A stretch of 64,000 nt of DNA from a bacterium (GCA_037444125.1 JBBINA010000003.1:3167-67166), one strand, 5' to 3'. Positions 15,207 to 39,173 are shown, counted from the stretch's first letter. Notes: generated from the letters alone by a model not told the origin. Program-made: numbers and translations.

Positions 15207-15217
15207 CAAAAACTATA

Positions 15218-15769: not shown

Positions 15770-15788
15770 AAATAATATAAAAATAAAA

Positions 15789-15826: not shown

Positions 15827-15860
15827 TATAAAATTATAAAAAATAATCTCACTAAATAGC

Positions 15861-15888
15861 TTGAAAACAGAAAATTAAAAAATATAAT
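15861..15888 (+). promoter_or_regulatory. Sigma-70-like promoter TTGAAA-N16-TATAAT ending 6 nt before the start codon of paralog 5 (a leaderless mRNA is predicted)
   Basis: -35 at 15861-15866 and -10 at 15883-15888, with the ATG at 15895. There is no room for a Shine-Dalgarno. Confidence 0.4.
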
Positions 15889-15894
15889 TAAATT

Positions 15895-21416: not shown

Positions 21417-21426
21417 ATAATATTAC

Positions 21427-22155: not shown

Positions 22156-23503
22156 AGTTGTAAAAATATTTTTCCTTTATAGTTTTAAGAAGTTTAAAAA
22201 TTAATATGGCTGGCAAAATTATATAAAAAACAGTAAAACCTACAGAATTAAACATTGGATAGGCAATGAGGGCGGTTATAGTAAGTAGAAACAGCTCATC
22301 GCTCTTTTGCAAAAAAATCAAAAAGGGAACAAGCCATAGAGAATCCCATTGCCTAACATTAATCTGAAATAAAATTATAAACATAACTAACGCAAGCAAT
22401 CCCTTCATCAAGAATGTCTTTTTGCTGTTTATTAGATTTATAAGATAACCAATAAAAAACAATGGTCTAAAAATAAAACGCGACAAGTAAGAAACTATAA
22501 AAAATAAAGTTAGTCTATCCTTAATTGTCTCTACAAATGGTATATAGAATATATTAGCGTAAGGCAATAAAAATATTTGGGATTGGAGAAATAAGCTTTT
22601 AAATGTTGTCCTTCCTGCCCAAATATCTTTATAGGCGAAGTAAACAATTAAAAACCCCAGTAACAAATTAACCAACAAAAATTGTATCTTACGCGCTAAG
22701 GTTTTTATTTTTTTAACAAGCTCGACCAAAGCAATTGGCACTAATAAAAAATATACATACTTAACTAGCCCTGAAACTATCAACAAAGGTATTACCAAAT
22801 ATCTTTTCCGATAAACAAAAAAGTAAATTCCCAAAATACCAAAAAATATCATCAGGTAATCGTTATGGGCATTATTAATAAATTCAATTAATATCCAAGG
22901 ATTAAATGCATATAGATAAGTTGCTTGAATCTCGCAGCCGGGCGCCAACTTTTTAACAACTAAATAAACTAACACTACGCTCAAGGTATTTATTAAGAAA
23001 GCGAACATTTTAAACACTATCATTGTGTATTGCGGAAATGAAGCAGACGATTTAGTCAGAAAATGCCCCACCCAGTACCACACTGGCCCATAATGATTCT
23101 CTTGGTTCCTCCACTCGCTCTGCTTAGTAAACATATCATCTGGATATTGAAATGGTGCAACTTTATAAGAATTTTCGTGGTATATCGAGCTTAACCTGCC
23201 CAAAGCAATAACTCTATAAACATCATTGGAAAAAAAAGGCGGTATAAAAACTAAAATTAAAGAGACCAGACAATAAGTCATTGCCAGCTTTGTTTTGTTT
23301 TTTTTAAGAAACTCGGCTCTGTAATAATAAACAATATAGATTACGACAATAAAAATTACAATTGCTAATAACTGCCAAACCCTAAAGTTATCATCAAAAA
23401 TATATACAGGCACCTTTAAACTTACGCGTGAATAACCAAAGTAGTAAAAACCGAGCATAAAGCAAAAACCAATATAAGATAAAACAAAAACAAACAATAG
23501 CAT
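22142..23503 (-). CDS. polytopic membrane protein, putative GT-C-like glycosyltransferase
   Basis: 453 aa with many TM helices. It sits inside the glycosylation island. Confidence 0.35.
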   Translation of the reverse strand: MLLFVFVLSYIGFCFMLGFYYFGYSRVSLKVPVYIFDDNFRVWQLLAIVIFIVVIYIVYYYRAEFLKKNKTKLAMTYCLVSLILVFIPPFFSNDVYRVIALGRLSSIYHENSYKVAPFQYPDDMFTKQSEWRNQENHYGPVWYWVGHFLTKSSASFPQYTMIVFKMFAFLINTLSVVLVYLVVKKLAPGCEIQATYLYAFNPWILIEFINNAHNDYLMIFFGILGIYFFVYRKRYLVIPLLIVSGLVKYVYFLLVPIALVELVKKIKTLARKIQFLLVNLLLGFLIVYFAYKDIWAGRTTFKSLFLQSQIFLLPYANIFYIPFVETIKDRLTLFFIVSYLSRFIFRPLFFIGYLINLINSKKTFLMKGLLALVMFIILFQINVRQWDSLWLVPFLIFLQKSDELFLLTITALIAYPMFNSVGFTVFYIILPAILIFKLLKTIKEKYFYNYVQQ

Positions 23504-23575
23504 ATTAATTATTCCAAGATCTTAAAACTTAAAATAATAAATAAACAAAAACATTTTTAAAAACAACTTATAAAA

Positions 23576-25319
23576 CTAATCTGTCCGTAATATTTTTCTA
23601 AACTCGTCTTCGTAAACAACCGGGAACTGCTCTTCAAAGAAGAAACGAACCATCTCTGGGAAAACAAGTTCTTTACAAAAAAATCTGTCATGCACATCGA
23701 GCTTGTAGATAATAACAAATTTAATCTTATATTTAATAAGAAATTCTTTTAACTCGTCAATTGACGGCGCATCAGTTCCTGGATTTGTCTGACAAGAAAA
23801 GAAAGGCCTCACATTATCTTCAAATAAATAGTTTATAAATTTTCTACTTTGATATACACGGATATTTATTAATCCTCCGATCAGCTTTCTTCCGTGAAGA
23901 GTCTGGTCATAAAGATGCAGACCTGACATAACTGGTCCCAACGGTAAATTCATAACAGCAAAGTCGCTGGTATCTTTTTGCCATTGATAAAAAATAGGTG
24001 GAACCCTAATGTCAAATCTGCCATAAGGATATATTGCTCTTTCAAAAATCAAACCAGCAAGTAATAAAACAACACTAACCCATCTAAATTTTATTTTTGA
24101 AAATGCTAAAGATAGAATGATCGCAAGAATTAAAACCGGAAAAATTGCGAATCTAGTCGCAAAACGCAACTGATTAAAGGGGGGAATATACATAAGTATA
24201 GCCATAAGGTAAGATAACTTTTTTCTCCATACCGAGTGACGCTCCTAAAACCGCTTCGTCTTCGGTCGGCTCAAACATATATAGAATAGGTCCTAAGGAT
24301 AAAACTAAAAAAACGGCACCAATAATTATGAGTTTCTTATATTTTACCGCCGCCTCATAACCCAACTTAAAGATTCTCGCCCGCCACAAAAACAGAAAAA
24401 TAAATCCCAACTCAATATAACCAAAAAAAACACTTGCGCCTTCTGTAGAGGCATAGTGACCTATAATTGGTATCTGTTTTAAAAACTTGCTCAGCCACTC
24501 CATATTCATCTCCATGTTCATATTCCTAGGGCTAACAAAGGAAAAAACGCGCGCGGCACCTGATGTTTGTTCCCAAAAAGAAAAACGAGGAACAAATAGC
24601 TCATAACCAAAAAAGAAGAACATAAACACCAAAACGCCACCATAGATACCTAAAGCCACTTTTAAAAGCTGCCGACTACCAAATACCAAACTAAACACAA
24701 AAAGTAGCAAGATGCTATAAAAAAAATAAATATAGGATGATAGAACCGCCAATAAAAGTCCACTTAAGATTTTTACCAGACTCCAGATGTTTGGCTTTTC
24801 TTTATACTGAAAACAAAACATTAGTATCAAAGGTAAGCTGAAACCGGCCAAAAGATTCAAATATTTATCACCGCGGGAAATAAAATAAGGGGAAAATGCG
24901 TAAATTGCGCTACCAATAAACGAGGCCAAGGGTTTATGATGGAAATATCTTCGCAATACATAGAAAAGCGTCGTGCCGTTTAAAGCAAAAAATAGCAGAA
25001 TAACAATATTGTTTATAAAAATACCGTTAGTAAAACTTCCAAATAAATAATAAATAATAATATATAGATAACTATCTATCGAGGTTGTCATGTCAACACC
25101 CCTGGGATACCATAAAAGATCAGTAGTCAACCTAAAATTACCGTCAACAACGCCCTTCATAAACCAACCCACCCAAGTCATTCCTAAAGCATCACGTAAT
25201 GAATTTGATGTATTAAAATTAAAGTAAGGTGTCGCTATCGGCGTGCCAAGTGCTAAATAAAATAAAAACGCCCAGATGATTTCTATATTTTTTATTATTT
25301 TATCTTTAATTTCGAACAT
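23576..25319 (-). pseudogene. Frameshifted paralog of the 597-aa membrane protein at 27626-29419 (two ORFs, 24174-25319 and 23576-24205)
   Basis: The upstream ORF ends ...VILPYGYTYVYSPL* and the downstream ORF begins MAILMYIPPF.. in a different frame. The intact paralog reads ..VPLPYFLIMYLPPF.. across the same point. The C-terminal halves also align (YDQTLHGRKLIGG vs YDQTIHNKRIVGG). This implies a 1-nt indel near 24200-24207. A G6 run lies at 24179-24184. Confidence 0.6.
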
Positions 25320-25474
25320 TATAATAAATTTGCTTTTGAAGCGTAATATCTTTTCAACCTTGAGTGGTGCTCTTAAAGGTAGATGTAGATAATCTTAAGG
25401 TTTTTAGCATATAAATTGTCGAAATCGCCAATAATTAAAAATTCTTATCAACAGAGATTCCGGCATAAACAATA

Positions 25475-26104
25475 CTATTTCAGTAAAAACTTAGGAATAT
25501 TATATAACTTACAGGTTGGGACGGCTCTGAATATCAAATCATAATCTGAGGCAAAACTTAAAGATTCATTATAACCATTCAGCTTGAAATAAATATCTCT
25601 CCTGTAACACCTAACAGGATCGGCAATTGGACTAACACGAAAAATGTACTTCCTTATCGCCTCATCTGTAACAGGATAATAACGTTTGCCTAAATCTTTT
25701 CCTCTGTCATTTATGATAACAAGATATGACCCACACACACCATAGGTTGGATTTTTTTCTAAAAAATCAACTTGCTCCTTTAGACGATCCGGTTCAGCAA
25801 TATCATCACTGTCCATAATAGCTACATATTTGCCCCTTGCGAACTTTCGTATAGCATAATTACGATTTCTAAATAAACCCTGTTTTTTTTCATTATCTAT
25901 AACTATAATCCTCGAATCTTTCATCTTATAATGATTTATGATTGTCATTGTATCATCTGTAGAGCAATCATTTATTATAATAAATTCGAAATTCGTAAAA
26001 GTTTGACCTAATATACTTTCTATTGCAACACCAATATATCGCTCCGAATTATAAGCCGACATTACCACAGATACTTTCGGTTTGGCATTATTTTGCATTC
26101 CCAT
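25475..26104 (-). CDS. GT2-family glycosyltransferase
   Basis: 209 aa: VSVVMSAYNSERYI...IINDCSTDDT...AIMDSDDIAEPDRL (DxD, GT-A fold). Confidence 0.65.
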   Translation of the reverse strand: MGMQNNAKPKVSVVMSAYNSERYIGVAIESILGQTFTNFEFIIINDCSTDDTMTIINHYKMKDSRIIVIDNEKKQGLFRNRNYAIRKFARGKYVAIMDSDDIAEPDRLKEQVDFLEKNPTYGVCGSYLVIINDRGKDLGKRYYPVTDEAIRKYIFRVSPIADPVRCYRRDIYFKLNGYNESLSFASDYDLIFRAVPTCKLYNIPKFLLK

Positions 26105-26121
26105 ATTTATGTTTATCTTAT

Positions 26122-27666
26122 TTACTGTAACATATTTTCATCAATACTTTCTCTTTTTAAAATAACTCCAGCTGAATTTTTTGAAAAAACCCTAAACTCG
26201 TTTGAAATGATTATCTTATCCAAACTACGTTCAAGCCATGGCTTATCCTTTTCAAGATACAAAATATACTCAACATCACTAAATACCGGCAACTGAGCAA
26301 GATGTTGCCTTTTAAACAAATGGGGCAACGAATAAACATAGGCAGCAACTGAGACATCCTGTGGAATACGGCTAATTAAGTTTATTGTTTCGTTTCTACG
26401 ATAATCAGTAAATCGTTCGTGCCACCGCTGATATGATGCCACGGGCATATAATATATAAAATTAAAAAAAACGACTGCAATTAAGCTGTATATAAACCCA
26501 AAGGTAACAATATTAACCCTAGTAAATTTACTAATCAAGAAGTTTTTGGCGGCTAAAATACTAATTATCCCCAAAGGCAAATAGGAAAGATTGTAATGAA
26601 ACCATGCAAGATGGCTATAATAAAAAATGTTACTAACCAACAACCTTTCTGCAATCGGTAAGACAAACAGCAAAATCCCGGGGGTAAAAACAGCCGGCAT
26701 AAAAGTGCCGACATTAAAAAAAATATTAGCATATTTCAAGGCATTAAAACCATTTAAGCATATAAATGATGATAACTTGCCTTGAAGAAATCTTTCCCAA
26801 GATTCTTTATAAAATGAAAAGTAAAAATAACTATCCTGTAAAAAATGAGGTATAACTATTTTAATAACTGTTATAAAGACAATGATACTGATAAAAACCG
26901 TAGCTAAGCCATGTTTTAAAAAAGTTCGTCTATCATAAATAATCAAAAATAAACCAAAAGCTGATAGATGAAGAATAAAATTCTCCTTTATCGTCATAAC
27001 TAAAATTGCCACGAGCCAATAAAATAACCACTTGCGGGTTATAGCAAAATAAAAAAGACTTAAGAGTAAAAAGGGATAAAAACTGTCCTGGGTAAAATCA
27101 TAAAGAGCAGCTGATTGTAAACCAGGATATAAAATATAAGTTAAACCAATCAATAGGGTATAAAATGATTGAATCTTAAGATGTCGAGCAATATAGTAAA
27201 GTGGAATAACGCCTAACAAAAGCAGCGTCACCTGGCCATAAATCAATGTTTCTGCCTCGGGCCAAAGCTTGAAAAAAGGTATGAATATCCAAATAATTGG
27301 ATTGAAGTGATTACCAAACTCATTTATAAGAACTTTGTTTCCGCTATCAATGGTTATTATAGGACTTCCCGTAGTTACCAAGTTCCATAATAAGTTCAGG
27401 GTATTAGCCAAATCTTGGGTGCTGAAAAAATTATAGTGACGATGTAGCGCAAGCGATGAATAATAAAAAAATAAGCAAATAACTAATATCGAAAGTATTA
27501 TCTTGGTTAAATGATAGCTTAGGTATTGTCCGGTCATATCAGAAAGTTTCTTGATAAATCCCTTTCTATGGGAATAAACGCTCAGAACACCACTTATTGA
27601 CAAGATTAAAATAATTTTAAACAAATCAGTCATAATGTTTTGGTAAGTTTCCGACTGAATACACAC
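26122..27666 (-). CDS. polytopic membrane protein, putative GT-C-like glycosyltransferase
   Basis: 514 aa with more than 10 TM helices. It overlaps the next gene by 41 nt. Confidence 0.35.
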   Translation of the reverse strand: MCIQSETYQNIMTDLFKIILILSISGVLSVYSHRKGFIKKLSDMTGQYLSYHLTKIILSILVICLFFYYSSLALHRHYNFFSTQDLANTLNLLWNLVTTGSPIITIDSGNKVLINEFGNHFNPIIWIFIPFFKLWPEAETLIYGQVTLLLLGVIPLYYIARHLKIQSFYTLLIGLTYILYPGLQSAALYDFTQDSFYPFLLLSLFYFAITRKWLFYWLVAILVMTIKENFILHLSAFGLFLIIYDRRTFLKHGLATVFISIIVFITVIKIVIPHFLQDSYFYFSFYKESWERFLQGKLSSFICLNGFNALKYANIFFNVGTFMPAVFTPGILLFVLPIAERLLVSNIFYYSHLAWFHYNLSYLPLGIISILAAKNFLISKFTRVNIVTFGFIYSLIAVVFFNFIYYMPVASYQRWHERFTDYRRNETINLISRIPQDVSVAAYVYSLPHLFKRQHLAQLPVFSDVEYILYLEKDKPWLERSLDKIIISNEFRVFSKNSAGVILKRESIDENMLQ

Positions 27667-29419
27667 TTATTAATCTATCCTCGTAAATTAACGGGTATCC
27701 ATCGATAAGCTTGGAAAAATTCTTAGCGACTGCATAGCAAAAATCGTCCTTTTTTTCTCCCAATTCTAATAAAGTTTCTGTATATACTACTATATATTTG
27801 CTCCTTGATTTACTCAGAAATGCTTCAAATTTTTTTTTGTCTTCGACGTCTATAGAAAACACGGCATTATCTCCTTGATTAAAAGTACAACTTAATTTTC
27901 TCAAGAAAGAATTTTCTGGCGCATTATAAAAATTATTGAACTCTGATGACCTAATTATCAAACTATGTAGGGCCCCGCCTACAATTCGTTTATTATGAAT
28001 TGTTTGATCATAATTAGCCAGAGTATTTAATATTGAATCAGTAGGAATAATAAATAAAGAATAATCACTACGATCGTTTTTGATATCATTAAAAAACTTA
28101 GGTCGCTCTATATTTTCTAAATTATAAGGAAGGGTTAAACGCTCAATTAAAAAAGAAGCACAAATTATTGCAAAAAAAAGAGGCCGTGAGGTTAATTTTT
28201 TTTCTTTCATAAAAAAAGACACAATAACCGCTACAGCAAGCAGGGAAAAAATAATAAACCGGTTTGGTGTTCTTAAAAAAATAAAAGGGGGAAGATACAT
28301 TATCAAAAAATATGGCAAAGGGACAATTAGTTTCCCAAAAGGAGAAACAGGAGCTTGAAAAAACTTCAGAATTGGCCCCATTGAAAAAATAAGAAAACTC
28401 AAAAAAATAAGATACCATAATTTTACCTTTTTCAAAAATTCCTTGATGAACAAACCGACTACCAGTATAGCCACCTCCGGTATGCCAAGATACACATCCT
28501 TCTCGGGCAAAGTAACAATGTATTTAGTATAAAACCCAGACAACAATTTTCCCAAGCTCGTAACAGGAGGTAGAATAAACAAAAAAGGGAAATCAGTCGC
28601 ATAACTAAAATTGCTAACCAATGAATAACCCAGATCATAAAACGATAACATGCCACCATTAGAATCAACAAGTAAGGAGGAAATGATAAGCATTAAAGGC
28701 ATCATCAATAATAAGGTGAACAAAAAAACAGCCAAGTACACTTTTATATACGAACTAAACGAACGGTCAACGGTGATATGATATATAATCACTTCTACGA
28801 TTGAAAATGTGATAATAAAGATAAAATATGTTGAACTTGCTAAAAAATTAAGAAAAATAGCTAGGCTAAATAAAATCGCATAATATAGTCGCTTATTCTT
28901 TTGTAGTTTTAATAAAAATAAGATTGCCAAAGGTATAAACTCAGCAGACATAATATTAAGATGTGTAACGCCACGAGATAACATAAATGTGCTAAAACCA
29001 AAAAGAAAACCACCTACTAAAGAAGCAGTAGTATGATTCGTCAAATACTTGATCAATAGAAAACTAAAAAAAGCAGTTAAAACAAATGCTAGCAAAACTT
29101 CTATGTTATAAGCGATATGTTGAGGAAAAAATTGAGCCAATATAAATGAAAGCCCGATATTAAAATAAGAATCGGTAGTTTGAGTTATATTTACAACAAA
29201 TGGGCTCCACAGATAATCATTAAAAAATGGGTTTTTATTTAACTCAAAAATAGAATACTTAAACCACCAATTTTGCCAAATAAATAAAAAGGGATCAGAA
29301 ATAAACGATTCCGCTGGAATTGAGGAAGTAAATCTAATTATTAAAGGAAAAGTAAAAATAATAGCACAAAAAAAATAAATCATTAGAACTATTAGATTTT
29401 CTTTTATCGATTCTCGCAT
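27626..29419 (-). CDS. polytopic membrane protein with a C-terminal extracytoplasmic domain (intact paralog of the frameshifted gene)
   Basis: 597 aa. N-terminal TM bundle plus a roughly 180-aa soluble C-terminal domain (..ANYDQTIHNKRIVGGALHSL..). Confidence 0.4.
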   Translation of the reverse strand: MRESIKENLIVLMIYFFCAIIFTFPLIIRFTSSIPAESFISDPFLFIWQNWWFKYSIFELNKNPFFNDYLWSPFVVNITQTTDSYFNIGLSFILAQFFPQHIAYNIEVLLAFVLTAFFSFLLIKYLTNHTTASLVGGFLFGFSTFMLSRGVTHLNIMSAEFIPLAILFLLKLQKNKRLYYAILFSLAIFLNFLASSTYFIFIITFSIVEVIIYHITVDRSFSSYIKVYLAVFLFTLLLMMPLMLIISSLLVDSNGGMLSFYDLGYSLVSNFSYATDFPFLFILPPVTSLGKLLSGFYTKYIVTLPEKDVYLGIPEVAILVVGLFIKEFLKKVKLWYLIFLSFLIFSMGPILKFFQAPVSPFGKLIVPLPYFLIMYLPPFIFLRTPNRFIIFSLLAVAVIVSFFMKEKKLTSRPLFFAIICASFLIERLTLPYNLENIERPKFFNDIKNDRSDYSLFIIPTDSILNTLANYDQTIHNKRIVGGALHSLIIRSSEFNNFYNAPENSFLRKLSCTFNQGDNAVFSIDVEDKKKFEAFLSKSRSKYIVVYTETLLELGEKKDDFCYAVAKNFSKLIDGYPLIYEDRLISVYSVGNLPKHYD

Positions 29420-29627
29420 GTTAGCTGAATAAACTTTAATTTAAGTTTATTTTTTCACCTGGGTTTGTTTAATATTCTGACAAGATAAAAAAATGATACC
29501 AGTAGCCTATAATATAATCTGAAGAATTTTATATCTCTTGTCTGAAACTTGGTAACACATAATAAAAATTTAAATGGAGTATTATGCACTAAAACAATCA
29601 TCTCTAAACTACTAAAGTTTTAAAGGA

Positions 29628-30593
29628 TTATTTCCTATCGAAATTTATCCTCCGTTTCACTATAAACAATGGCCTATCACTTACCTCACTATGAATATTG
29701 GCAATATAAAGGGATACTATACCAATAGAAAACAACATTATTCCAGTTAAGAAAAGATTGAAAATAGCTAAAATCGCCGTTCCAGAAAAATGAAAACCAA
29801 ACGGGTCGTTAATAATATATTTATTTAAAAATATGAATAAACCTAATAGTCCTGAAAATATCGTAACAACTACGCCAAGATAACCGACTAACCTTAAAGG
29901 AAAAAGGCTATGAGTTGTAAAGCTAACTAAAGCCAGGCTAACTAATTTCCCATAAGAATATTCACCTAATCCATGTTTTCTCTCATTAACCCGAAATATC
30001 ACATAGGCTTTTTTAAAACCCAACCAATCTATTAATCCGCGCGCAATGCGGTTTCTTTCTGTAAACCGATTAAATTCTTTTATAATTTTTCGGTCAATAA
30101 GCCGAAAGTCTGTCTCGCCGGAAACGATCTCGGTCTCGCTAATAATCTGCATAATTTTATAAAAAATCAAGGAACTTATTCTTCTAATAAAATTTGTTTT
30201 GCCAACATTTTTTTTGATGCCAATCACAATATCAAATCCTTCCTTCCATTTCTTCAGAAATTCAGAAATAAGTTCTGGCGGGTGCTGAAGGTCACCATCC
30301 ATTATTACGGCCGCGTCGCCTGAGGAATAAAAAATTCCAGCTGAAATAGCAATCTCCTTACCAAAATTTCTGGACAAACCAACGCATTTTACTCTCTCGT
30401 CTTTTTCAGCTATTTTCTTAATTACCTTATAGCTACCATCATTACTTCCATCATCTATAAAAATAATTTCAAAATTGTACTTTTCTTTTAAAGACAAAAA
30501 AACTTTTTTGAGTTTTTCATATAGTAATTCAATATTGTCTTCCTCGTTATAAACTGGGATGATAATTGAAATTAGTTTTTTGCGCATGTACAA
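29628..30593 (-). CDS. GT2-family polyprenyl-phosphate glycosyltransferase with C-terminal TM helices (GtrB/ArnC-like)
   Basis: 321 aa: ISIIIPVYNEEDNI...IFIDDGSNDGS...VIMDGDLQHPPELI, plus two C-terminal TM helices as in bactoprenol glucosyl/ArnC transferases. Confidence 0.7.
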   Translation of the reverse strand: MYMRKKLISIIIPVYNEEDNIELLYEKLKKVFLSLKEKYNFEIIFIDDGSNDGSYKVIKKIAEKDERVKCVGLSRNFGKEIAISAGIFYSSGDAAVIMDGDLQHPPELISEFLKKWKEGFDIVIGIKKNVGKTNFIRRISSLIFYKIMQIISETEIVSGETDFRLIDRKIIKEFNRFTERNRIARGLIDWLGFKKAYVIFRVNERKHGLGEYSYGKLVSLALVSFTTHSLFPLRLVGYLGVVVTIFSGLLGLFIFLNKYIINDPFGFHFSGTAILAIFNLFLTGIMLFSIGIVSLYIANIHSEVSDRPLFIVKRRINFDRK

Positions 30594-30681: not shown

Positions 30682-32034
30682 TCACCTGCTCTTAGGAACG
30701 AATTCTGTGCGGGAAACGCCGTTAACGGCGAATTCATCGATCCAGAGTTTATTCGAGTTAACTTTGAGACATCCTGCGAAAGCAAATCGTGGGAAACAAG
30801 CTCCGCCTGGACAAAGCCCACGAATTCTTGTTGGGATTATAAGTTCATTCTCTTTAGAAAGCTGTACAATATAAGGATGGTTAAACTGACTTGTCTCGCC
30901 TCGGCCGATTTTCAACCAGATGCGCGGCGGATCCTCTTGATTAATGGTACAGCCGCCGGCAAAAGTTATTCTGACCTTATCGCCGGGCGAGAATCTAACA
31001 TCAATTTGCTTAATTTTCTCACCAAAATCATATCTTAACCAAGACATCTCGGGAGTAAACTCTCTATCAGGAGGGGGCGCGTCTCCGGGAACTGTAACAA
31101 CACTTTGTGCCCCCTGTAATTCCAGATAGAAATCAGTTATTCCCTGTGCCGCTTTTCCCAACCTGAAAGAACTAATCGCCGGCCAGACAAAATAAACAAA
31201 TCCACCAATGATACCCAAAATCAGCAACAGTCTAAACGCCTTATAGCTACTTTTTTCAAATGGTATTGCAATGCCAAAAATTAACAAGAGAAGTGTCCCA
31301 AGAATCATAAAAAAGAATTGAGGCTTATTTTCGGCGTACTTGACGACTGTCTCCAAAAAATCCTTTACACCGCTAAATCCTTGTTCCTGAACAATAAAGT
31401 AGCCTATAATAACGACACCGGCTGTTATAATCGCCAGCGTAAGAAATTTAAAAACTGATTTTTCCTCGCGTAGCAATACCAAAACCAAAACGCCAAAACC
31501 CAGAACAACTCCAAGTAAGATCCATTCTGAGGAAAGCTTGCTAAAAGGCTCTATCTGACGTAAATAGTAAAATCCTGCGCCAAGTAGCCCCAAAAATAAA
31601 ATCAGTATGGGAATGCCAAAAACTAATTCGGCAAAAGATCCACCTCTTCTAAACAAAAACCAAAACCCAGCTAACACAAGAATAACTATACCCGTAGCAA
31701 GAAGCTCTACTGGTCCGATATCCTGGGTAAATTTAGCGCTTTCGTTAATAATAAAACCAAGAATAGCGCTAAAGTTTAAGATGGCTATTATTAACCCTAC
31801 TAAGCTCAGGATAGTCAGAAATGTCTTTCCAACTGACCAAGTGCCAAAGTCAAGGATTGGACCCTTAAACTCTGGTTTAAACTCGCCCTTTTTAATAGTC
31901 ACTGTCTTGTCTAAAAACTTTTTTGCCGCAACAATGACTAAAGTTAAAACTACTAACCAAAAACCTGCGAAACCTAAAACATAAGGCACAAGAAATAACG
32001 CCACTAGGCCGATAACGATCCATCCAATATTCAT
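30682..32034 (-). CDS. polytopic membrane protein with a C-terminal Cys-containing beta-rich domain, hypothetical
   Basis: 450 aa. Its stop overlaps the downstream SPFH gene by 4 nt, so the two form an operon. Confidence 0.35.
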   Translation of the reverse strand: MNIGWIVIGLVALFLVPYVLGFAGFWLVVLTLVIVAAKKFLDKTVTIKKGEFKPEFKGPILDFGTWSVGKTFLTILSLVGLIIAILNFSAILGFIINESAKFTQDIGPVELLATGIVILVLAGFWFLFRRGGSFAELVFGIPILILFLGLLGAGFYYLRQIEPFSKLSSEWILLGVVLGFGVLVLVLLREEKSVFKFLTLAIITAGVVIIGYFIVQEQGFSGVKDFLETVVKYAENKPQFFFMILGTLLLLIFGIAIPFEKSSYKAFRLLLILGIIGGFVYFVWPAISSFRLGKAAQGITDFYLELQGAQSVVTVPGDAPPPDREFTPEMSWLRYDFGEKIKQIDVRFSPGDKVRITFAGGCTINQEDPPRIWLKIGRGETSQFNHPYIVQLSKENELIIPTRIRGLCPGGACFPRFAFAGCLKVNSNKLWIDEFAVNGVSRTEFVPKSR

Positions 32035-33299
32035 TCTTCTGCACCACCCTCCTCGTCTTTCTTGCCTAATTTACCTATTCCCTCACCTATACTGATAAGC
32101 CCTTCTTTCAGCCCGGGAATATTAAATATGGTCTCAGTGGCCTTACCTCGCTCAATTTTCAAGAGATCAGCAGCTTCCTTAGCTGTAAGCCCACGTCTCT
32201 TGTGCTTACTAATCTCCTCTGCAATAAATTCTTGCTCTGCCCTCTCCGCTTCGATTTGTTTAAGTTCTCTGTATCTTTTCTGTAAATCATCCTCAACTTC
32301 CTTATCAAACGATACATCACCAACAAAAGCTCGCACCACTTCAATGCCATAACGGCTTTCAGAATCAACCAGCTCTCCAGGAACAGGTCTACCTTGCTGA
32401 TCAGTGATTACATTACCATTCTCGTCAATCTGTTGTTCTTCAAAAAGATTTTGAATAGCCCGTTGCAGCTGGTTTCTATTACTCCGCACCCAGTCAGCAT
32501 CATGTTCAGCTACTGTATCTCGTAATGCCTCAAGAAATATATGAGGCAAAGTCTGTTTAAGCACCAACTGATCTATATTCAAAGCATTATAAGGATTGAT
32601 CACCCGATAAACAAATCCTACCTCAACAGCAACGCGGACACCATCATTTGTCAAAATAGGCTTCATCTCGGGAACTATATTATCAACCAGCTTTTCAGCC
32701 TGTTGATGTGCCATCTCCTGCTCTGATGTTTGTTCCGTAACTGTTGCCACAACACCCTGCTCAGTACTTCTACCCACCACACGGAAAATCTGATCAGTAA
32801 CATTGAACTTCTTCAATGACATAATACCCAAAGGCAAAGGTAAAAAAACTAAGCCTTGATGGTAAATAATTCTTTCCCGCCTTTTGAGAAAAAAAACCAC
32901 GGCACTTTCCAAGGGATCACTACTAATAAGTTGTAATACTTTATTTTCGCCGGTAAAATAGAAAAGGATAACTGCTATAACCGAAAGCCCCATTGCCGTT
33001 ATTTCAACATTAAAAGGTATAGCAGGAATCTTGCCAATTAAACTAACAAGAAAAAGCACCGTACAAAGAACAGAGCAAAATCCTAAAAATCCAGACAGCC
33101 AAGTATCTTCACCTCTGTTAAACACAATATAGCCGTTAAATCTATTACCGGGCTCGTTCACTAGATGCTCCTGATAGTTTCTATACGCCCAGCGGGCACA
33201 ATAAAAAGCACCAACCGCTAGCCCAACACTCACCAACCAGTCAAATATTCCTAACAAAACACCCATCGCTTTTCCTCCTTTACATTGATTCAGATTCAA
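32031..33299 (-). CDS. SPFH/band-7 domain membrane protein (HflK/flotillin-like)
   Basis: 422 aa. N-terminal TM helices, then an SPFH-like core (VRVAVEVGFVYRVINPYNALNID) and a charged C-terminal coiled coil (RYRELKQIEAERAEQEFIAEE). Confidence 0.45.
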   Translation of the reverse strand: MNLNQCKGGKAMGVLLGIFDWLVSVGLAVGAFYCARWAYRNYQEHLVNEPGNRFNGYIVFNRGEDTWLSGFLGFCSVLCTVLFLVSLIGKIPAIPFNVEITAMGLSVIAVILFYFTGENKVLQLISSDPLESAVVFFLKRRERIIYHQGLVFLPLPLGIMSLKKFNVTDQIFRVVGRSTEQGVVATVTEQTSEQEMAHQQAEKLVDNIVPEMKPILTNDGVRVAVEVGFVYRVINPYNALNIDQLVLKQTLPHIFLEALRDTVAEHDADWVRSNRNQLQRAIQNLFEEQQIDENGNVITDQQGRPVPGELVDSESRYGIEVVRAFVGDVSFDKEVEDDLQKRYRELKQIEAERAEQEFIAEEISKHKRRGLTAKEAADLLKIERGKATETIFNIPGLKEGLISIGEGIGKLGKKDEEGGAEE

Positions 33300-34812: not shown

Positions 34813-34889
34813 AAATAATAAAAAAACATCTTATTATATTATACAATATATAACTAAGTTTTATAAAATTTTTAAGGACGCTTGGACTA

Positions 34890-34918
34890 TTGACAACTTT
34901 GAATTTGTTTCTTATTAT
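34890..34918 (+). promoter_or_regulatory. Near-consensus sigma-70 promoter TTGACA-N17-TATTAT upstream of the sigma-r4 domain gene
   Basis: -35 at 34890-34895 and -10 at 34913-34918, with the gene start at 34977. Confidence 0.45.
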
Positions 34919-34976
34919 ATTATATTCTTTATAATATTATAATATTATATTCTCAATTTAAAATCTAAAGCCATAA

Positions 34977-36020
34977 ATGTCTCTCAACATAAACACCCTC
35001 AGAAATATTTCCCTAAATATCCTCAATTCGCTCAATGACAAACAGCAAAATGTAATTAAAAAAAGATTTGCTATTGATGCCAAAGAACCTCTCACTCTAC
35101 AAGAAATAGGTAATGAATACGGCATCACACGCGAGCGAGTGCGCCAAATTCAAAATGAAGCTTTAAACAAGCTACGTCGCAACTCCCAAGTAATTGAACA
35201 AATAAAGAACCTGCATGACGAACTGCATGAATTTTTAGAAACACATGGCGGCCTAAAACACGAAGAAAAATTACTTGACTCATTCTTAACCGCGCATCTT
35301 AAAATACAAAAGCCAAAAGGTCTTTCAGGGTTCATCCACCTTGCTTTACATATTGGTCATCCCTACTTTAAAAATATTAAAGAGGATAATGAATTTTTTG
35401 CCCACTGGTATAATTTAGAAACGGCAGTTAAAAACGCGCGACGGCTCACAGAAGAAATGATTAACCGTTTTAATAAAATTAAGACAATTTTGCATTATTA
35501 TGATGTTATTGAGGAAGCTCGTAAAATTATTAAAGGTCTTTCGGAAAAAGCTATTATCTCATACCTTGAAATTTCAAAACAAATAAGCAGCAACACTTTT
35601 GGTTACTGGGGTTTGGCCGACTGGGAAGAAATAAGACAACGCGGCGTCAAGGGTAAAATATATGTAATTCTGGAAAAAGAAAGACGGCCAATGCATTTTC
35701 GCGAAATTTCTCAAATCATCAACAAACACTACCCCAAAAAAGTTAAAATACCGACAGTTCACAACGAACTTATCAAAGATGATCGTTTTGTTCTTGCCGG
35801 CCGCGGCACTTATGCACTTAGAAAATGGGGCTACGAAGATCTACCCGTCAAGGATGTGATTATTAAAATTATCCGAGAAAACAAAGGAAAATTATCCAAA
35901 GAAAAACTTATTCAAGAGGTTTTAAAAAGGAAAATTGTTAAACCAGAAACCGTTAAACTTAATATCAAAATGCTTAAAAACATCAAGGAAAAAGGCGACT
36001 TACTGAGCTTAATAGCCTAA
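34977..36020 (+). CDS. DNA-binding protein with an N-terminal sigma-70 region-4 HTH and a roughly 270-aa C-terminal domain of unknown function
   Basis: Residues about 20-70 (QQNVIKKRFAIDAKEPLTLQEIGNEYGITRERVRQIQNEALNKLR) match RpoD region 4.2. No regions 2 or 3 are present. Confidence 0.55.
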   Translation: MSLNINTLRNISLNILNSLNDKQQNVIKKRFAIDAKEPLTLQEIGNEYGITRERVRQIQNEALNKLRRNSQVIEQIKNLHDELHEFLETHGGLKHEEKLLDSFLTAHLKIQKPKGLSGFIHLALHIGHPYFKNIKEDNEFFAHWYNLETAVKNARRLTEEMINRFNKIKTILHYYDVIEEARKIIKGLSEKAIISYLEISKQISSNTFGYWGLADWEEIRQRGVKGKIYVILEKERRPMHFREISQIINKHYPKKVKIPTVHNELIKDDRFVLAGRGTYALRKWGYEDLPVKDVIIKIIRENKGKLSKEKLIQEVLKRKIVKPETVKLNIKMLKNIKEKGDLLSLIA

Positions 36021-36046
36021 TTTTATTCAGTTTATTCTTAATATAA

Positions 36047-37456
36047 ATGGCTCTTTTTGAAAAAATATTGCTATATGTAGTGGTTTTTTTATTTATCAGA
36101 ATTTTATATATCTACGCCAGAAATAAATTCATTGACATTAAAGAAACACAATTCCTGGCACAACGAAAATTTGCAGTTTTAGAAGTAATGATTCCTGCGG
36201 AGATTGAAAAAACGCCCCTAGCTATGGAAAATGTTTTTTCAATTATCCATGGAACGCTTATTGTGCCCGGACCAATTGATTACAATTTTTATGGCGTTAG
36301 AGAGTATTTATATGTTTTTGAAATAGTCGGACGCAATGGTTATGTTAATTACTACCTAAATGTACCTGTAGAGTATACTGAACTTGTTAAGTCAGCTCTA
36401 TATTCAAACTTCCCTACGCTGGAAGTAAAAGAAACCGAAGACTGGAAAAAAGACCTACCAACTTTTAAACCTGGGCAAAATATATATTTTAAAAATAATA
36501 CCAAATACCGCGTCAAAATAGGCGAATTAAAACTCATTAAACCTGATGCTTATCCTATTAAAACTTATTTGGATTTTGGCTTTAAGGAGAAATTTGTTGA
36601 TTTAGAAGAAGAAAGTAAAATATCTGACCCGCTGGCTAATGTCTTAGAAGCTATTGGTAGTGCCGGCAAAGACGAAATAATAGTATACCAACTATTAATT
36701 CAGCCAACCGCCGACGCTTGGAAAGAAGAAGGTCTAAAACTAAGAGATCAATTGTTGGGACGCAACCAACAAAAGAAAGCTACTGGCCTGAAGTATATCT
36801 TCAATGAGATGCTTAAAGAATTAAGATTATGGCTTACAGCCGCTATTGATAGATTTATGCATTTAGTCACTGGCGGCCATATAGGCTCCATCGAAGAACA
36901 AATAAAACAAATGCAGCAAGAAAAGGAACTATTCCCTCAAGCTCTAGCATTATCAAAGCGGGAAATGGAAGTTATTTATGCCATCGAACGCAATATTTCA
37001 AAACTTGGTTTTACCACTTGGATAAGACTAGGTTATATCGCGCCTAAGCAATCATATAATGTAGCTAAATATGAAAATTTGGTTTATTCTTTCAAACAGT
37101 TCAACAGCCAAGATTTAAATGGTTTTATGAGTAATTCTTATTTTAGCAGTGAAGTTGATATTCGACTGGGAGATTTGTTGGATTTTAAAACTCTTTATTA
37201 TATTTGGTGGAAACATAGAGGAATTATTGCACCTACTAATAAACGCAAACTAGATGCCTTACGACAATATAATCTTTTTACTCTTCTTTACAGAAAGGTG
37301 CCAGGCAAAAGAAAAATCGGTCACCGATCATTTGTTTTCAATACAGAAGAGTTGGCCACAATTTATCATTTTCCAACCAAAGGAATAGTAGCGCCATATA
37401 TTAAAAGAATTGAAGCAAAAAGAAAGAGACCGCCTCTTGGCTTGCCAACCGGTTAA
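36047..37456 (+). CDS. single-pass membrane protein, hypothetical, directly upstream of the HerA/FtsK-like ATPase
   Basis: 469 aa with an N-terminal TM (ILLYVVVFLFIRILYIY) and a large soluble domain with no recognised motif. Confidence 0.35.
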   Translation: MALFEKILLYVVVFLFIRILYIYARNKFIDIKETQFLAQRKFAVLEVMIPAEIEKTPLAMENVFSIIHGTLIVPGPIDYNFYGVREYLYVFEIVGRNGYVNYYLNVPVEYTELVKSALYSNFPTLEVKETEDWKKDLPTFKPGQNIYFKNNTKYRVKIGELKLIKPDAYPIKTYLDFGFKEKFVDLEEESKISDPLANVLEAIGSAGKDEIIVYQLLIQPTADAWKEEGLKLRDQLLGRNQQKKATGLKYIFNEMLKELRLWLTAAIDRFMHLVTGGHIGSIEEQIKQMQQEKELFPQALALSKREMEVIYAIERNISKLGFTTWIRLGYIAPKQSYNVAKYENLVYSFKQFNSQDLNGFMSNSYFSSEVDIRLGDLLDFKTLYYIWWKHRGIIAPTNKRKLDALRQYNLFTLLYRKVPGKRKIGHRSFVFNTEELATIYHFPTKGIVAPYIKRIEAKRKRPPLGLPTG

Positions 37457-37487
37457 GATTTTATAAATTAACTTCGTATTAATAATT

Positions 37488-39077
37488 ATGGCTGAACAAA
37501 TAACAATAATCGGGGCAACTGACTTTCGCGGCCAAAAAATAAAGTTCGGTATAAAAAAAGATGACCGTCGTCGCCATTTATATATTATTGGAAAAACTGG
37601 TATGGGTAAAACAACACTTCTTGAAAACCTGGCTATTCAAGATATACAAAATGGCAACGGTCTATGCGTGGTTGATCCGCACGGCGAATTCGCTGATAAA
37701 CTCCTTGATTATGTGCCAGCTAATCGCATAAAAGATGTCGTCTATTTTAATCCTTCAGACACTAATTACCCTATTGGCTTCAATGTTATGTCGACTGAGA
37801 ATCAAGAAGAGCGTTATCTTATCGCTTCGGGCTTAATGGGGGTTTTTAAAAAGATATGGCCTGATGTTTGGTCGCCACGAATGGAATATATTCTCAATAA
37901 TACTATTTTATCTTTATTGGAAATGCCCGGTATGACGCTATTAGGCATTAATAGAATGCTGGGCGAAACCGATTATCGAAAACAAATAATCCAACGTTTA
38001 AAAGATCCAGTGGTTAAAACCTTCTGGGTTAATGAATTTGCCAAATACTCGCCATCGTTCCAAACAGAAGCCGTAGCCGCTATCCAAAATAAGGCTGGAC
38101 AATTTATCACTAATCCTCTGGTGCGAAATATTGTCGGTCAAATGGAGAATAAAATTAACATGCGTGAAATAATGGACGGCCAAAAAATTTTAATTGTCAA
38201 TCTCTCTAAGGGAAAAATTGGCGAAGACAACTCCAGTCTTCTGGGCGGTATGATTATTACAAAACTACAACTAGCTGCTATGTCGCGAGTCGATACTCCA
38301 GAAAATCTGCGCAAAGACTTTTATTTATATGTCGATGAGTTCCAAAATTTCGCCACCGAGTCTTTTATTAATATTTTATCAGAAGCCCGAAAATACCGAC
38401 TTTGCCTAACATTAGCTCATCAATACATCGCCCAACTAACTGATAAGGGCGTCAATAAGAGTACAGGCGTGAGGGATGCTATTTTCGGCAATGTCGGCAC
38501 AATTATTTCCTTCAGGGTAGGAGGCGAAGATGCAGAGTTTTTAGAAAAAGAGTTCTTTCCCGAATTCACCAAATTAGATTTTGTAAATCTGCCAAAATAT
38601 AAAATTTATCTAAGGCTTATGATAGACGGTGTGGTTTCTAGACCATTTTCAGCTGAAACTTTGCCCCCTCTTCCCAAACCAACCAAAACTTACCGCAAAG
38701 AAATTATTGACTTTAGCCGCAAAACCTATGGAGTCGCCCGAGAAACCGTTGATGTATTTGTGGCTGAATGGATGAGTATAGAAAAACTAGATGATGAAAA
38801 AATAGAAAGAGCTTTTAAACAGCATGTTACCAAATTATATGATGCTGTCTGCGCTAATTGCCAGAAAAAAACCAAACTCATTTTTGAACCTCGTCCAAAT
38901 GAACCAGTTTTTTGCCGCAAGTGTTATAAAAATAAAGCCGAATCTAGTACCCGCAAGCCAACACAGCAAGCTAGAAAAAAACCTATACCAAAAACCACAG
39001 AAGAAGATCAATCTAAAACTCTTAAAAATCTTTTGTTAGAAGCTATTAAAATGAAAGGCGAAAAACCTAAACAATAA
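37488..39077 (+). CDS. FtsK/HerA-superfamily P-loop ATPase with a C-terminal zinc ribbon (VirD4/TraD-coupling-protein-like or HerA-like)
   Basis: 529 aa. Walker A IIGKTGMGKTT, a HerA-type VVDPHGEF motif, Walker B LYVDEFQNF, and a C-terminal CANCQ...CRKC zinc ribbon. No TM segment. Confidence 0.55.
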   Translation: MAEQITIIGATDFRGQKIKFGIKKDDRRRHLYIIGKTGMGKTTLLENLAIQDIQNGNGLCVVDPHGEFADKLLDYVPANRIKDVVYFNPSDTNYPIGFNVMSTENQEERYLIASGLMGVFKKIWPDVWSPRMEYILNNTILSLLEMPGMTLLGINRMLGETDYRKQIIQRLKDPVVKTFWVNEFAKYSPSFQTEAVAAIQNKAGQFITNPLVRNIVGQMENKINMREIMDGQKILIVNLSKGKIGEDNSSLLGGMIITKLQLAAMSRVDTPENLRKDFYLYVDEFQNFATESFINILSEARKYRLCLTLAHQYIAQLTDKGVNKSTGVRDAIFGNVGTIISFRVGGEDAEFLEKEFFPEFTKLDFVNLPKYKIYLRLMIDGVVSRPFSAETLPPLPKPTKTYRKEIIDFSRKTYGVARETVDVFVAEWMSIEKLDDEKIERAFKQHVTKLYDAVCANCQKKTKLIFEPRPNEPVFCRKCYKNKAESSTRKPTQQARKKPIPKTTEEDQSKTLKNLLLEAIKMKGEKPKQ

Positions 39078-39108: not shown

Positions 39109-39138
39109 TTTGAAAAATCAACCCAATATCAAGTATAA
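39109..39138 (+). promoter_or_regulatory. Sigma-70-like promoter TTGAAA-N18-TATAAT upstream of rplU
   Basis: -35 at 39109-39114 and -10 at 39133-39138, with the gene start at 39174. Confidence 0.4.
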
Positions 39139-39173
39139 TGTATTTCATAAAATAAATTACTAAATAAGTTAAT

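Follow-up and report, generated by a model that had tools for sequence, protein, structure and literature searches.

Three neighbouring genes in the 64-kb stretch of DNA analysed in this work (hereafter the window) form an operon that belongs to the chromosomal core of Patescibacteria (CPR), a group of ultra-small bacteria, and this operon very probably encodes a split module of the type IV coupling protein (T4CP) type. No prior description of this module was found in the literature searched.

Organization and conservation of the locus

The preliminary description of this DNA had proposed three co-directional genes separated by 27-32 bp. The corresponding open reading frames are present on the + strand, and their close spacing was borne out, with the intergenic gaps being corrected to 26 and 31 nt. 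The genes and the promoter-like sites that surround them are the following:

34977..36020, + strand: gene 1, 347 aa; sigma-70 region-4 domain, middle helical/winged-helix part, HARE-HTH and C-terminal winged helix
36047..37456, + strand: gene 2, 469 aa; N-terminal membrane helix followed by a DUF8128 domain
37488..39077, + strand: gene 3, 529 aa; soluble ATPase of the VirD4/VirB4 clade
34890..34918, + strand: promoter-like site upstream of gene 1, TTGACA-17 nt-TATTAT, 11/12 consensus matches
39110..39139, + strand: promoter-like site between gene 3 and rplU (L21), TTGAAA-18 nt-TATAAT, a consensus match only

Gene 1 starts 59 nt downstream of the promoter-like site at 34890..34918, and -35-like hexamers are present on both sides of the latter (TTGGAC at 34882 and TTGAAT at 34899). 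Promoter-like matches are no commoner in this AT-rich stretch than in shuffled sequences (21 versus 18.8); among gene 1 orthologues, TTGAC is 4.8-fold enriched upstream of the gene as compared to other genes of the same loci. The putative promoter preceding rplU likely represents the downstream limit of the transcription unit.

DUF8128 is present in at least 592 species-level genomes. The gene encoding it has gene 1 as a neighbour in 65 of the 72 loci that could be tested, and gene 3 in 53 of 65 loci (gene 2 and gene 3 being apart in the remaining 12); the same synteny is obtained when the search departs from gene 1. The order gene 1-gene 2-gene 3 is kept across the Patescibacteria and, since the same three genes occur in this order in most of 80 independent genomes, the arrangement lies far beyond chance. 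The co-occurrence in relatives on which the preliminary description had made its proposal depend was therefore observed. The surroundings of the module are of a housekeeping nature, consisting of SecA-SecD-SecF (SecDF) and aminoacyl-tRNA synthetase genes, and no virB4, pilin, plasmid or phage genes were among its neighbours.

Genes 2 and 3 as a probable split coupling protein

Features of gene 2 and gene 3 are listed below:

36047..36124, + strand: gene 2 membrane helix, residues 1-26 (hydropathy)
37590..37613, + strand: gene 3 Walker A, G35-KTGMGKT-T42 (sequence motif)
Gene 3 residues 61-67, + strand: V-D-P-H-G-E box (sequence motif)
38331..38345, + strand: gene 3 Walker B, V282-DEFQ-286 (sequence motif)
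38832..38936, + strand: gene 3 treble-clef zinc finger CxxC-x17-CxxC, residues 449-483, with cysteines C455/C458/C476/C479

Gene 3 contains a nucleotide-binding domain of the FtsK-HerA superfamily with Walker A and B motifs and carries a Lys/Glu-rich tail. Both Walker motifs, the V-D-P-H-G-E box and the zinc-finger cysteines, all of which had been recognized beforehand, are invariant in 42 homologues, and the ATPase is about 60% identical across lineages. The Pfam comparison that had been advised retrieved TrwB_AAD_bind (E 2.6e-12, covering residues 22-344), zf_Tbcl_2 (8e-11), DUF87 and TraG-D_C; the TraD model is matched as well, as is, weakly, the NCBIfam model of CedD, an archaeal DNA-import ATPase. 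TrwB and DotL are the best solved relatives by sequence. In the structure model of gene 3, an eight-helix insertion (approximately residues 105-230) is located between strands 84-87 and 234-238. As had been claimed for the ATPase, no membrane segment was detected by hydropathy in gene 3 or in any of the 42 homologues; the N-terminal membrane anchor that is a trait of T4CPs is instead located on gene 2.

Two other identities were considered for these proteins and rejected. FtsK/SpoIIIE was discarded for gene 3 as the FtsK_SpoIIIE motor domain, the 4TM N-domain and the gamma winged helix were not found, and the ATPase is thus not FtsK proper; had it been, the proposal of the preliminary description would, by its own terms, have been refuted. 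Neither gene 2 nor gene 3 matches the VirB4 sequence models CagE_TrbE_VirB and AAA_10, and VirB4_CagE (TIGR00929) reaches 16 bits, its cut-off being 643, the similarity to VirB4 being one of folds alone.

Gene 2 possesses a single hydrophobic segment at residues 1-26, in agreement with the one N-terminal transmembrane segment reported earlier, with five Lys/Arg within the 17 residues directly following it; we infer a membrane topology that would place the large domain in the cytoplasm. That this domain had been called unknown is accurate with respect to the local Pfam copy, which has no PF26449 model and returned no match, but not with respect to the precomputed annotation, which assigns PF26449 (DUF8128) to P0001, a protein identical to that of gene 2, as well as to each of the 120 homologues listed. 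The conserved C-terminal motif of gene 2 is NTEELATIYHFP. When the DUF8128 model (pLDDT 77.5, pTM 0.75) was used in a Foldseek search, the first ranks were taken by 14 TrwK chains (best E 2.8e-5, probability 1.00), the predicted fold resembling the N-terminal, membrane-proximal domain of VirB4.

In Bacillaceae conjugative plasmids, a DUF8128-like N-domain and the ATPase are carried by one polypeptide of 833-883 aa. WP_003349917.1 of B. methanolicus pBM69 aligns to DUF8128 over residues 46-311 (hhalign probability 99.0, E 2.9e-18) and to gene 3 over residues 326-725 (BLASTP, E 5e-43 at 27% identity); these matches are collinear and separated by a 14-residue gap. It adjoins a Replic_Relax protein (replication-relaxation relaxase), with an AAA_10 VirB4 downstream, and two further Bacillaceae plasmids display the same layout. 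Given that one plasmid protein carries both parts, genes 2 and 3 would represent a split coupling protein, which is the reading that had been put forward for the ATPase and the membrane protein encoded upstream of it. In the database, WP_003349917.1 is annotated as ‘DUF87 domain-containing protein’.

Gene 1 combines sigma region 4 with winged helices

Two domains were delineated in gene 1:

34989..35189, + strand: sigma-70 region-4 domain, residues 5-71 (homology)
35655..35828, + strand: HARE-HTH winged helix, residues 227-284 (Pfam, E 3e-9)

Residues 16-67 match Pfam Sigma70_r4 (E 1.8e-18), consistent with the sigma-70 region 4.2 HTH previously placed at the N-terminus; the remainder had been regarded as unknown, a label which no longer applies to the part occupied by the HARE-HTH. 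Residues 538-603 of sigma-70 align without gaps, so that R52, E53, R56 and Q57 of gene 1 correspond to sigma-70 R584, E585, R588 and Q589. These -35-contact residues are invariant in 38 homologues, and the closest relatives of this region 4 are primary sigma factors. Sigma regions 2 and 3 were not found in gene 1, where only region 4 matches, and sigma-factor models align only to residues 5-85, with scores far under their cut-offs. A sigma-70 family sigma factor was consequently rejected, as region 2 (core binding and -10 recognition) is missing; because all -35-reading residues are kept, gene 1 is expected to bind DNA at TTGACA-like sites. It was also rejected as RNA polymerase delta subunit (RpoE), since TIGR04567 scores 34.4 bits, below the 42-bit cut-off, the HARE-HTH is internal and the C-terminus is not acidic. 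JGI names some members of the family ‘RNA polymerase delta subunit’.

In S. epibionticum, the counterpart SEML1_0294 is a 349-aa Sigma70_r4 and HARE-HTH protein encoded directly upstream of, and co-directional with, SEML1_0293, a TrwB_AAD_bind ATPase of 921 aa (Wang et al. 2023, PMC10633639). Since the ATPase occupies residues 402-719 (PMC10633639), the lengths and domain coordinates in the published table indicate that SEML1_0293 is probably a DUF8128-ATPase fusion. Both genes are flagged ‘core’ and ‘Patescibacteria-enriched’ (PMC10633639 Table S1), and SEML1_0294 is parsed as a tri-helical domain with three winged helices (PMC10633639 Table S2). According to Tn-seq, SEML1_0294 is essential and the SEML1_0293 ATPase dispensable (PMC10633639), which speaks against gene 1 being a mere adaptor of the ATPase.

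The same result has to be weighed in considering whether gene 1 is an essential general RNA polymerase- or promoter-binding factor, in which a mimic of sigma region 4 would be linked to a HARE-HTH akin to the delta subunit, and which would only share a transcript with the ATPase pair rather than take part in its work. Such a factor would account for an essential gene located ahead of a dispensable one, and it is in line with the relationship of region 4 to primary sigma factors, the invariant -35-contact residues and the resemblance of the HARE-HTH to the delta subunit at the sub-threshold TIGR04567 score. We nevertheless consider it quite unlikely: the adjacency to DUF8128 in 65 of the 72 loci extends over many candidate phyla and is kept in Saccharimonadia as well, and conservation of this degree usually denotes a functional link; gene 1 has neither an acidic delta tail nor sigma region 2. 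Its essentiality could, by analogy, be explained equally well by a kil/kor-type pair, in which loss of the repressor would derepress a toxic membrane ATPase.

Relation to type IV secretion and proposed mechanism

The VirB2-like pilins to which the module had been linked are real (12982-16257), but are located 19 kb from it, behind a glycosyltransferase cluster, and the window contains no VirB4, VirB3, VirB6 or relaxase. In 80 related loci, single-sequence queries, which are of limited sensitivity, detected no virB4 or pilin within 10 kb of the module, and no virB3/prgI, virB6 or relaxase was found next to it in the window or in these loci. The suggested link to the pilins is therefore not supported, and the genetic association of T4CPs with a relaxase, a VirB4-based type IV secretion system (T4SS) or both was not seen in the window or, at this limited sensitivity, in the 80 loci.

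VirD4-type T4CP homologues have been reported in 2,918 of 3,035 Patescibacteria genomes, with just 148 of 5,713 such homologues near virB4 and 39 relaxases near t4cp (PMC12102498). The T4SS of Patescibacteria branches within the monoderm class MPF-FATA (PMC12102498), its bona fide VirB4 being encoded separately, elsewhere (PMC12102498; PMC10633639). The phylum has hardly any relaxases (109 across 3,035 genomes; PMC12102498), implying that the classical DNA substrate is missing. T4CP homologues are reported in 96% of genomes and VirB4 in 80% (PMC12102498), which may point to a function independent of a T4SS, although incomplete MAGs and the sensitivity of the HMMs confound this comparison. The T4SS genes of S. 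epibionticum are essential and its T4CP homologue is not (PMC12102498; PMC10633639), so the essential job of this T4SS needs no such ATPase.

Considering what was observed, namely the structure of the genes, the homologies of their domains and the likeness of folds, the fused homologue, the conserved gene order and the housekeeping surroundings, the best explanation is a split T4CP-type motor with a sigma-region-4/winged-helix DNA-binding partner, which works as outlined in the following; to this explanation as a whole we accord an even chance. Gene 2 would most likely anchor an oligomer of gene 3, probably a hexamer, on the inner side of the membrane. Gene 3 would act as a RecA-like ATPase with intact catalytic motifs, whose modelled helical insertion may correspond to the all-alpha domain found in coupling proteins; by hydrolysing ATP, it would recruit a substrate and push it, DNA being the most likely one. 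Genes 2 and 3 would descend from coupling proteins of the fused kind that occur in monoderm (Firmicutes-type) conjugation systems and, now chromosomally fixed apart from virB4, would in our preferred reading still constitute the substrate-receptor arm of the Patescibacteria T4SS encoded elsewhere. Acting at its own promoter, which has a consensus -35 hexamer, gene 1 may repress the operon or tune its expression; alternatively, it may target the motor to DNA. The specific function, a T4SS-linked hand-off of DNA or another substrate with gene 1 as regulator or adaptor, is proposed tentatively, at somewhat less than an even chance; we infer the gene 2-gene 3 complex, its oligomeric state, substrate and transport direction, and the role of gene 1.

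The separation from virB4 nearly everywhere, and the larger number of genomes reported to have T4CP homologues than VirB4, would also suit a membrane-anchored DNA translocase working without a T4SS, through its own or another channel (e.g. ComEC uptake, DNA export or processing), with gene 1 as its DNA-recognition partner in the manner of FtsK gamma or the C-terminal winged helix of Streptomyces TraB. The zinc finger on the ATPase, the DNA-binding partner and the weak CedD match fit this idea, as does the dispensability of both the ATPase and comEC in S. epibionticum, in whose tables no ComFA is named. However, transposon reads of SEML1_0293 fall over passages (5817 to 2940 to 1372) and those of comEC stay flat (12586 to 12301; PMC10633639), so the phenotypes differ; comEC, comEA or dprA synteny with the module was not seen in the 80 loci, and the closest non-CPR relatives are coupling proteins working with a T4SS. 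Such a translocase is accordingly judged unlikely.

Quite improbable, too, is a self-contained system restricted to Patescibacteria, in which a -35-reading sigma-region-4 mimic is wired to a membrane-tethered VirB4/VirD4-type motor. By analogy with kil/kor pairs, the essential sigma-mimic could restrain a potentially lethal translocase; alternatively, promoter-bound DNA (or RNA polymerase) could be handed to a T4SS-independent translocase. If either were true, the ‘orphan T4CP’ that is near-universal in the phylum would serve a purpose other than type IV secretion, with gene 1 representing a new class of essential sigma-4-based factor.

The preliminary description had offered a HerA-type anti-phage function as an alternative. 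In a HerA/DptH-like anti-phage or DNA-surveillance module, the HARE-HTH would sense foreign or modified DNA, and PADLOC does return mad8 (1.5e-15) and HerA (1e-6), along with matches of gene 1 to MzaA (region 4 only) and, weakly, PglW. All of these matches are partial and weak, those to HerA being confined to gene 3 residues 14-83, and the module is near-universal in the phylum, highly conserved and fixed in its SecA-SecD-SecF and tRNA synthetase setting, with no adjacent nuclease, Sir2 or other effector and an essential gene 1 counterpart, which makes a defence role extremely improbable. As to a HerA-type defence/repair ATPase, only the DUF87 central domain was matched, and neither the HerA N-terminal barrel nor an effector partner (NurA, Sir2, DUF4297) was found.

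Comparison with known systems

Relative to primary sigma factors, gene 1 retains a region 4.2 with every -35-contact residue but lacks regions 1.2-3, and thus cannot open promoters or bind core polymerase in the sigma manner. Its HARE-HTH is of the delta (RpoE) type, whereas the acidic tail is missing, and three additional winged helices are present, as parsed in SEML1_0294 (PMC10633639). For SEML1_0293, unlike gene 3, the published table gives no Pfam zinc-finger entry, the table being older than that model.

The Bacillaceae fused proteins share with gene 2 the motifs W-x-S-x-E-I-V, Y-A-x-x-P-x-x-E-I, P-I-K-T-Y and T-E-E-x-A-x-I. They are single polypeptides rather than two, have no zinc finger and, by hydropathy, no membrane segment, and are plasmid-borne beside relaxase and VirB4, with no sigma-region-4 partner. 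R388 TrwB (PDB 1E9R) has its own two-helix membrane anchor, whereas in the module the anchor is provided by a second protein carrying a VirB4-like N-domain; gene 3 is only about 14% identical to TrwB and, as compared to TrwB/VirD4/TraD, has an extra zinc finger and no relaxase or T4SS linkage. To VirB4/TrwK (R388; PDB 7O42, 8RTD) and the VirB4 C-domain (4AG5) there is likeness of fold, with no sequence-level family match. In staphylococcal pSK41/pGO1, a small VirB4-N-like protein, TrsD, is encoded just before the VirB4 TrsE, which is the same idea as here, and TrsD homologues are widespread beside virB4 in Patescibacteria; however, no similarity was detected between the DUF8128 profile and TrsD of pSK41 (hhalign probability 0.1%), and gene 3 matches TrsE and TrsK around single motifs only.

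On Streptomyces plasmids, the FtsK-like translocase TraB (‘kil’) is paired with the TraR/KorA repressor (‘kor’). As in the Tn-seq pattern, the upstream HTH protein of such a pair would not be losable while the membrane ATPase would be, an analogy that extends over different protein families: the motors belong to the FtsK and VirD4/VirB4 branches, respectively, the regulators are of the GntR and the sigma-4/winged-helix type, and the TraB system is plasmid-borne.

Organization of the locus and its transcription unit

The three co-directional open reading frames reported in the preliminary description are present in the window, being separated by gaps of 26 and 31 nt and accompanied by two promoter-like sites.

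Features of the three-gene module
34890-34918, + strand: promoter-like site upstream of gene 1 (TTGACA-17 nt-TATTAT)
34977-36020, + strand: gene 1, 347 aa, Sigma70_r4/HARE-HTH protein
36047-37456, + strand: gene 2, 469 aa, DUF8128 membrane protein
37488-39077, + strand: gene 3, 529 aa, VirD4/VirB4-clade ATPase
Between gene 3 and rplU, + strand: second promoter-like site (consensus match)

The promoter-like sites 5' of gene 1 and 3' of gene 3 fit a separate three-gene transcription unit, such matches by themselves being weak evidence where DNA is AT-rich. Sequences preceding gene 1 orthologues are enriched 4.8-fold in TTGAC as compared to other upstream regions (1.03 versus 0.215 per 150 nt); the motif is mostly part of a near-consensus -35/-10 pair, and the TTGACA box is retained even where the end of SecF lies just 31-52 nt away. 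Within the corresponding interval of the window (34860-34976) three -35-like hexamers are found at 34882, 34890 and 34899, thus with a spacing of 8-9 nt.

The window is an AT-rich chromosomal segment (GC content ~34%) rich in housekeeping genes, which encode S1, RNase Y, ClpP, trigger factor, NusA, GyrA, TsaD, L21, RecR, DnaB, S18, SSB, S6, L31, RF1, L25, GAPDH, PPDK and SecA, while its only Rfam matches are two tRNAs. The nearest relatives of the three products are encoded by Patescibacteria/CPR metagenome bins. A mobile-element origin of this copy was considered and rejected: tblastn of gene 2/DUF8128 gave no match in 72,556 plasmids, 2.9 million viral contigs hold one partial DUF8128 match only, and the absence of module paralogues within the window also counts against such an origin. 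The single viral-contig match (L094, IMGVR_UViG_3300009537_000513) is a partial DUF8128 C-terminus located at a contig end, and this contig is possibly a misclassified CPR fragment.

Other parts of the window encode envelope functions. A long cluster on the - strand (16263-30593) contains four GT2 glycosyltransferase genes and genes for a GT87-like protein and a DUF2079 membrane protein, together with five open reading frames of 209-597 aa without a Pfam match. It is followed, directly upstream of tRNA-Trp, by a gene pair (30682-33299, - strand) whose first product, a multi-pass membrane protein of 450 aa, has no Pfam match and whose second is a 422-aa SPFH/Band-7 protein. The product of 61279-63042 (- strand), 587 aa long and containing PKD and lamin-tail domains, is likely a surface protein or adhesin.

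Conservation of the arrangement

By scanning one genome per species, at least 592 DUF8128 loci were identified, of which 80 were retained; nearly all titles name Patescibacteria, CPR candidate phyla or unclassified bins. Of 72 testable loci among the 80, 65 have gene 1 directly 5' of gene 2, and another four have it no more than 8 kb away; gene 3 is located directly 3' of gene 2 in 53 of 65 testable loci, with MltG taking the downstream place where gene 3 is missing. A search starting from distant gene 1 homologues retrieved the same trio. SecD-SecF (at times SecA-SecD-SecF) directly precedes the trio in approximately half of the related loci (L004-L083 and L088-L090), and tRNA synthetases follow it in approximately half. 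In the window, SecA is positioned 17.5 kb from the trio and SecDF is not nearby.

The sigma region 4/HARE-HTH protein

Pfam assigns residues 16-67 of the gene 1 product to Sigma70_r4 (E 1.8e-18) and residues 227-284 to HARE-HTH (E 3e-9), and both domains occur in each member of a family of more than 4,800 clusters, all of 330-375 aa. Its region 4, most similar to that of primary and RpoS-type sigma factors, aligns without gaps to residues 538-603 of E. coli sigma-70, so that R52, E53, R56 and Q57 correspond to R584, E585, R588 and Q589, the residues by which the -35 hexamer is read, as established from structures of region 4 on -35 DNA. Every position from I50 to Q57 is invariant among 38 homologues. 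The absence of sigma regions 2 and 3 means that this protein does not qualify as a sigma factor; judged from its sequence it is a predicted DNA binder with sigma-like -35 specificity, and the TTGACA -35 boxes in front of its own gene suggest possible autoregulation. A diverged replication-relaxation relaxase, as encoded next to the fused plasmid coupling proteins described below, was rejected as an identity for this protein (hhalign probability 0.3%).

DUF8128 and the ATPase

The gene 2 product is without a match in the local Pfam and NCBIfam libraries, and was identified as PF26449 (DUF8128) by precomputed annotation, the profile of this family retrieving 3,871 clusters among 1.84 billion representatives. 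Its single hydrophobic helix (residues 1-26) precedes a stretch rich in Lys/Arg, by which, according to the positive-inside rule, its large domain would be cytoplasmic. No PDB relative is detectable by sequence. When its AlphaFold model (44 homologues; pLDDT 77.5, pTM 0.75) was submitted to Foldseek, 14 TrwK chains ranked top; hundreds of P-loop proteins are instead retrieved by the gene 3 ATPase model, unlike the DUF8128 model, and the likeness of DUF8128 is therefore to the non-ATPase, N-terminal and membrane-proximal part of VirB4. TrsD is a small VirB4-N-like protein adjoining virB4 (PMC12102498), and membership of DUF8128 in the TrsD family was ruled out by sequence (hhalign probability 0.1% versus TrsD of pSK41).

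Gene 3 specifies a soluble ATPase in which Walker A (G35-T42), Walker B (V282-Q286) and four cysteines are invariant among 42 homologues, with Pfam matches to TrwB_AAD_bind, TraG-D_C, DUF87 and the treble-clef finger zf_Tbcl_2, and weak NCBIfam matches to TraD, CedD and VirD4-like proteins. The possibility, raised in the preliminary description, that this ATPase is FtsK proper did not hold. A role as FtsK replacement was likewise rejected, given that Southlakia epibionticum already has a complete, canonical and essential FtsK (PMC10633639) and that the ATPase resembles VirB4 and TrwB more closely in structure than it does FtsK. An anti-phage or defence function, also put forward there, is not supported.

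In two related loci (L022:5563-6999 and L054:8259-9704) a shorter second ATPase paralogue without the zinc finger is arranged in tandem 3' of the main ATPase, which may be the cause of the published number of approximately two type IV coupling protein (T4CP) homologues per genome. In another (L088:10090-11775), a 561-aa protein with a C-terminal zf_Tbcl_2 (E 5e-4) and no other Pfam match is encoded directly 3' of the ATPase.

Counterparts in S. epibionticum and proposed function

The S. epibionticum counterparts of gene 1 and the ATPase, SEML1_0294 and SEML1_0293, are adjacent and co-directional (Wang et al., PMC10633639 Tables S1, S2), and both families are flagged as core and Patescibacteria-enriched. 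SEML1_0294 (349 aa; Sigma70_r4 27-72, HARE-HTH 225-283, parsed as tri-helical plus three winged helices) was called essential at 3/3 time points, while SEML1_0293 (921 aa; TrwB_AAD_bind 402-719, P-loop domain 361-795) was called non-essential, its normalised reads dropping from 5817 to 2940 to 1372 (PMC10633639). As the first 360, unassigned residues of SEML1_0293 match DUF8128 in size, the published lengths and domain coordinates indicate that DUF8128 and the ATPase are probably fused in this class (Saccharimonadia); among the best 150 of the 3,871 DUF8128 representatives, all of 340-535 aa, no fused form was found.

Two explanations may account for the essentiality of the gene 1 counterpart. 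The protein may act more broadly in transcription, or, by analogy with the kil/kor-like pattern known for Streptomyces TraR/TraB, loss of the repressor may derepress a harmful membrane ATPase.

Genes 2 and 3 very probably encode the two halves of a T4CP-type motor, with a domain plan like that of VirB4 (N-domain plus ATPase), in which gene 2 would act as the membrane tether of the gene 3 oligomer. The preferred function is that of a substrate-receptor or translocase arm of a type IV secretion system (T4SS) encoded elsewhere. Agrobacterium VirD4 is dispensable for pilus biogenesis, so that no contradiction arises where the T4CP is non-essential but the T4SS and pilin array are essential. In S. 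epibionticum the T4SS locus (VirB4, PrgI and six pilins) is located at another site and is essential (PMC10633639). VirB4-like or VirB2-like genes were not found within 10 kb of the module in any of the 80 loci, and across the phylum only 148 of 5,713 T4CP homologues are near virB4 (PMC12102498). A serious rival is a DNA translocase that operates independently of the T4SS, partnered for example with ComEC; in S. epibionticum ComEC is dispensable and no ComFA is present by name (PMC10633639).

The window itself contains six tandem VirB2/T4SS_pilin paralogues (12982-16257, + strand; 334, 124, 125, 135, 145 and 120 aa), similar to the essential six-pilin array of S. epibionticum, and lacks VirB4, VirB3 and VirB6 throughout its 64 kb.

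Relation to published work and to plasmid coupling proteins

Entries for the three protein families exist already, and a phylum-wide count of the T4CP homologue has been published: of 3,035 Patescibacteria genomes, 2,918 carry a VirD4-type homologue and 2,417 carry VirB4, against a total of just 109 relaxases (Quinonero-Coronel et al., PMC12102498). In the literature searched on DUF8128, the zinc-finger spacing CxxC-x17-CxxC and CPR coupling proteins, neither a description of the three-gene module, nor the VirB4-N-domain fold of DUF8128, nor the split-versus-fused relation to Bacillaceae plasmid coupling proteins, nor the constant association with a sigma-4/HARE-HTH protein that is essential is reported. 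A large part of bacterial diversity belongs to Patescibacteria, whose life style of attachment to other cells cannot do without their type IV secretion genes. The 'orphan' coupling-protein homologue found throughout the phylum now emerges as part of a core operon of three genes, in which the membrane portion that it lacks is supplied by the uncharacterised family DUF8128 with a VirB4-N-domain fold, and its constant partner is a sigma-4/HARE-HTH protein. This partner is essential in the sole genetically tractable species, S. epibionticum, where the annotation gap becomes experimentally approachable.

A tblastn search of the 72,556 plasmids with gene 3 returned 618 records, chiefly from Bacillus and Streptomyces. 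The match on pBM69 of B. methanolicus (WP_003349917.1, 833 aa, 'DUF87 domain-containing protein') resembles gene 3 across residues 326-725 (27% identity, E 5e-43) and the DUF8128 profile across residues 46-311 (hhalign 99.0%, E 2.9e-18), with family signature motifs common to both; the gene 2 and gene 3 products are therefore collinear with one plasmid protein. For the N-domain of an Embleya (actinomycete) T4CP the similarity to DUF8128 is weak and in the same register (E 3.4e-4, probability 38%), and a Sulfolobus pARN3 protein gave no DUF8128-like N-domain match.

On pBM69, the fused gene has a primase-like gene on one side and a relaxase gene of the Replic_Relax type on the other, and an AAA_10 VirB4 is encoded downstream together with TcpE-like and further proteins of conjugal transfer, a layout also found on Shouchella and Niallia plasmids. 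The fused protein therefore serves a monoderm conjugation system as its coupling protein. The origin of the module is thereby tied to coupling proteins of one particular class, encoded on Firmicutes plasmids, and the module family is descended from monoderm conjugation systems, in agreement with the MPF-FATA ancestry proposed for the T4SS of Patescibacteria.
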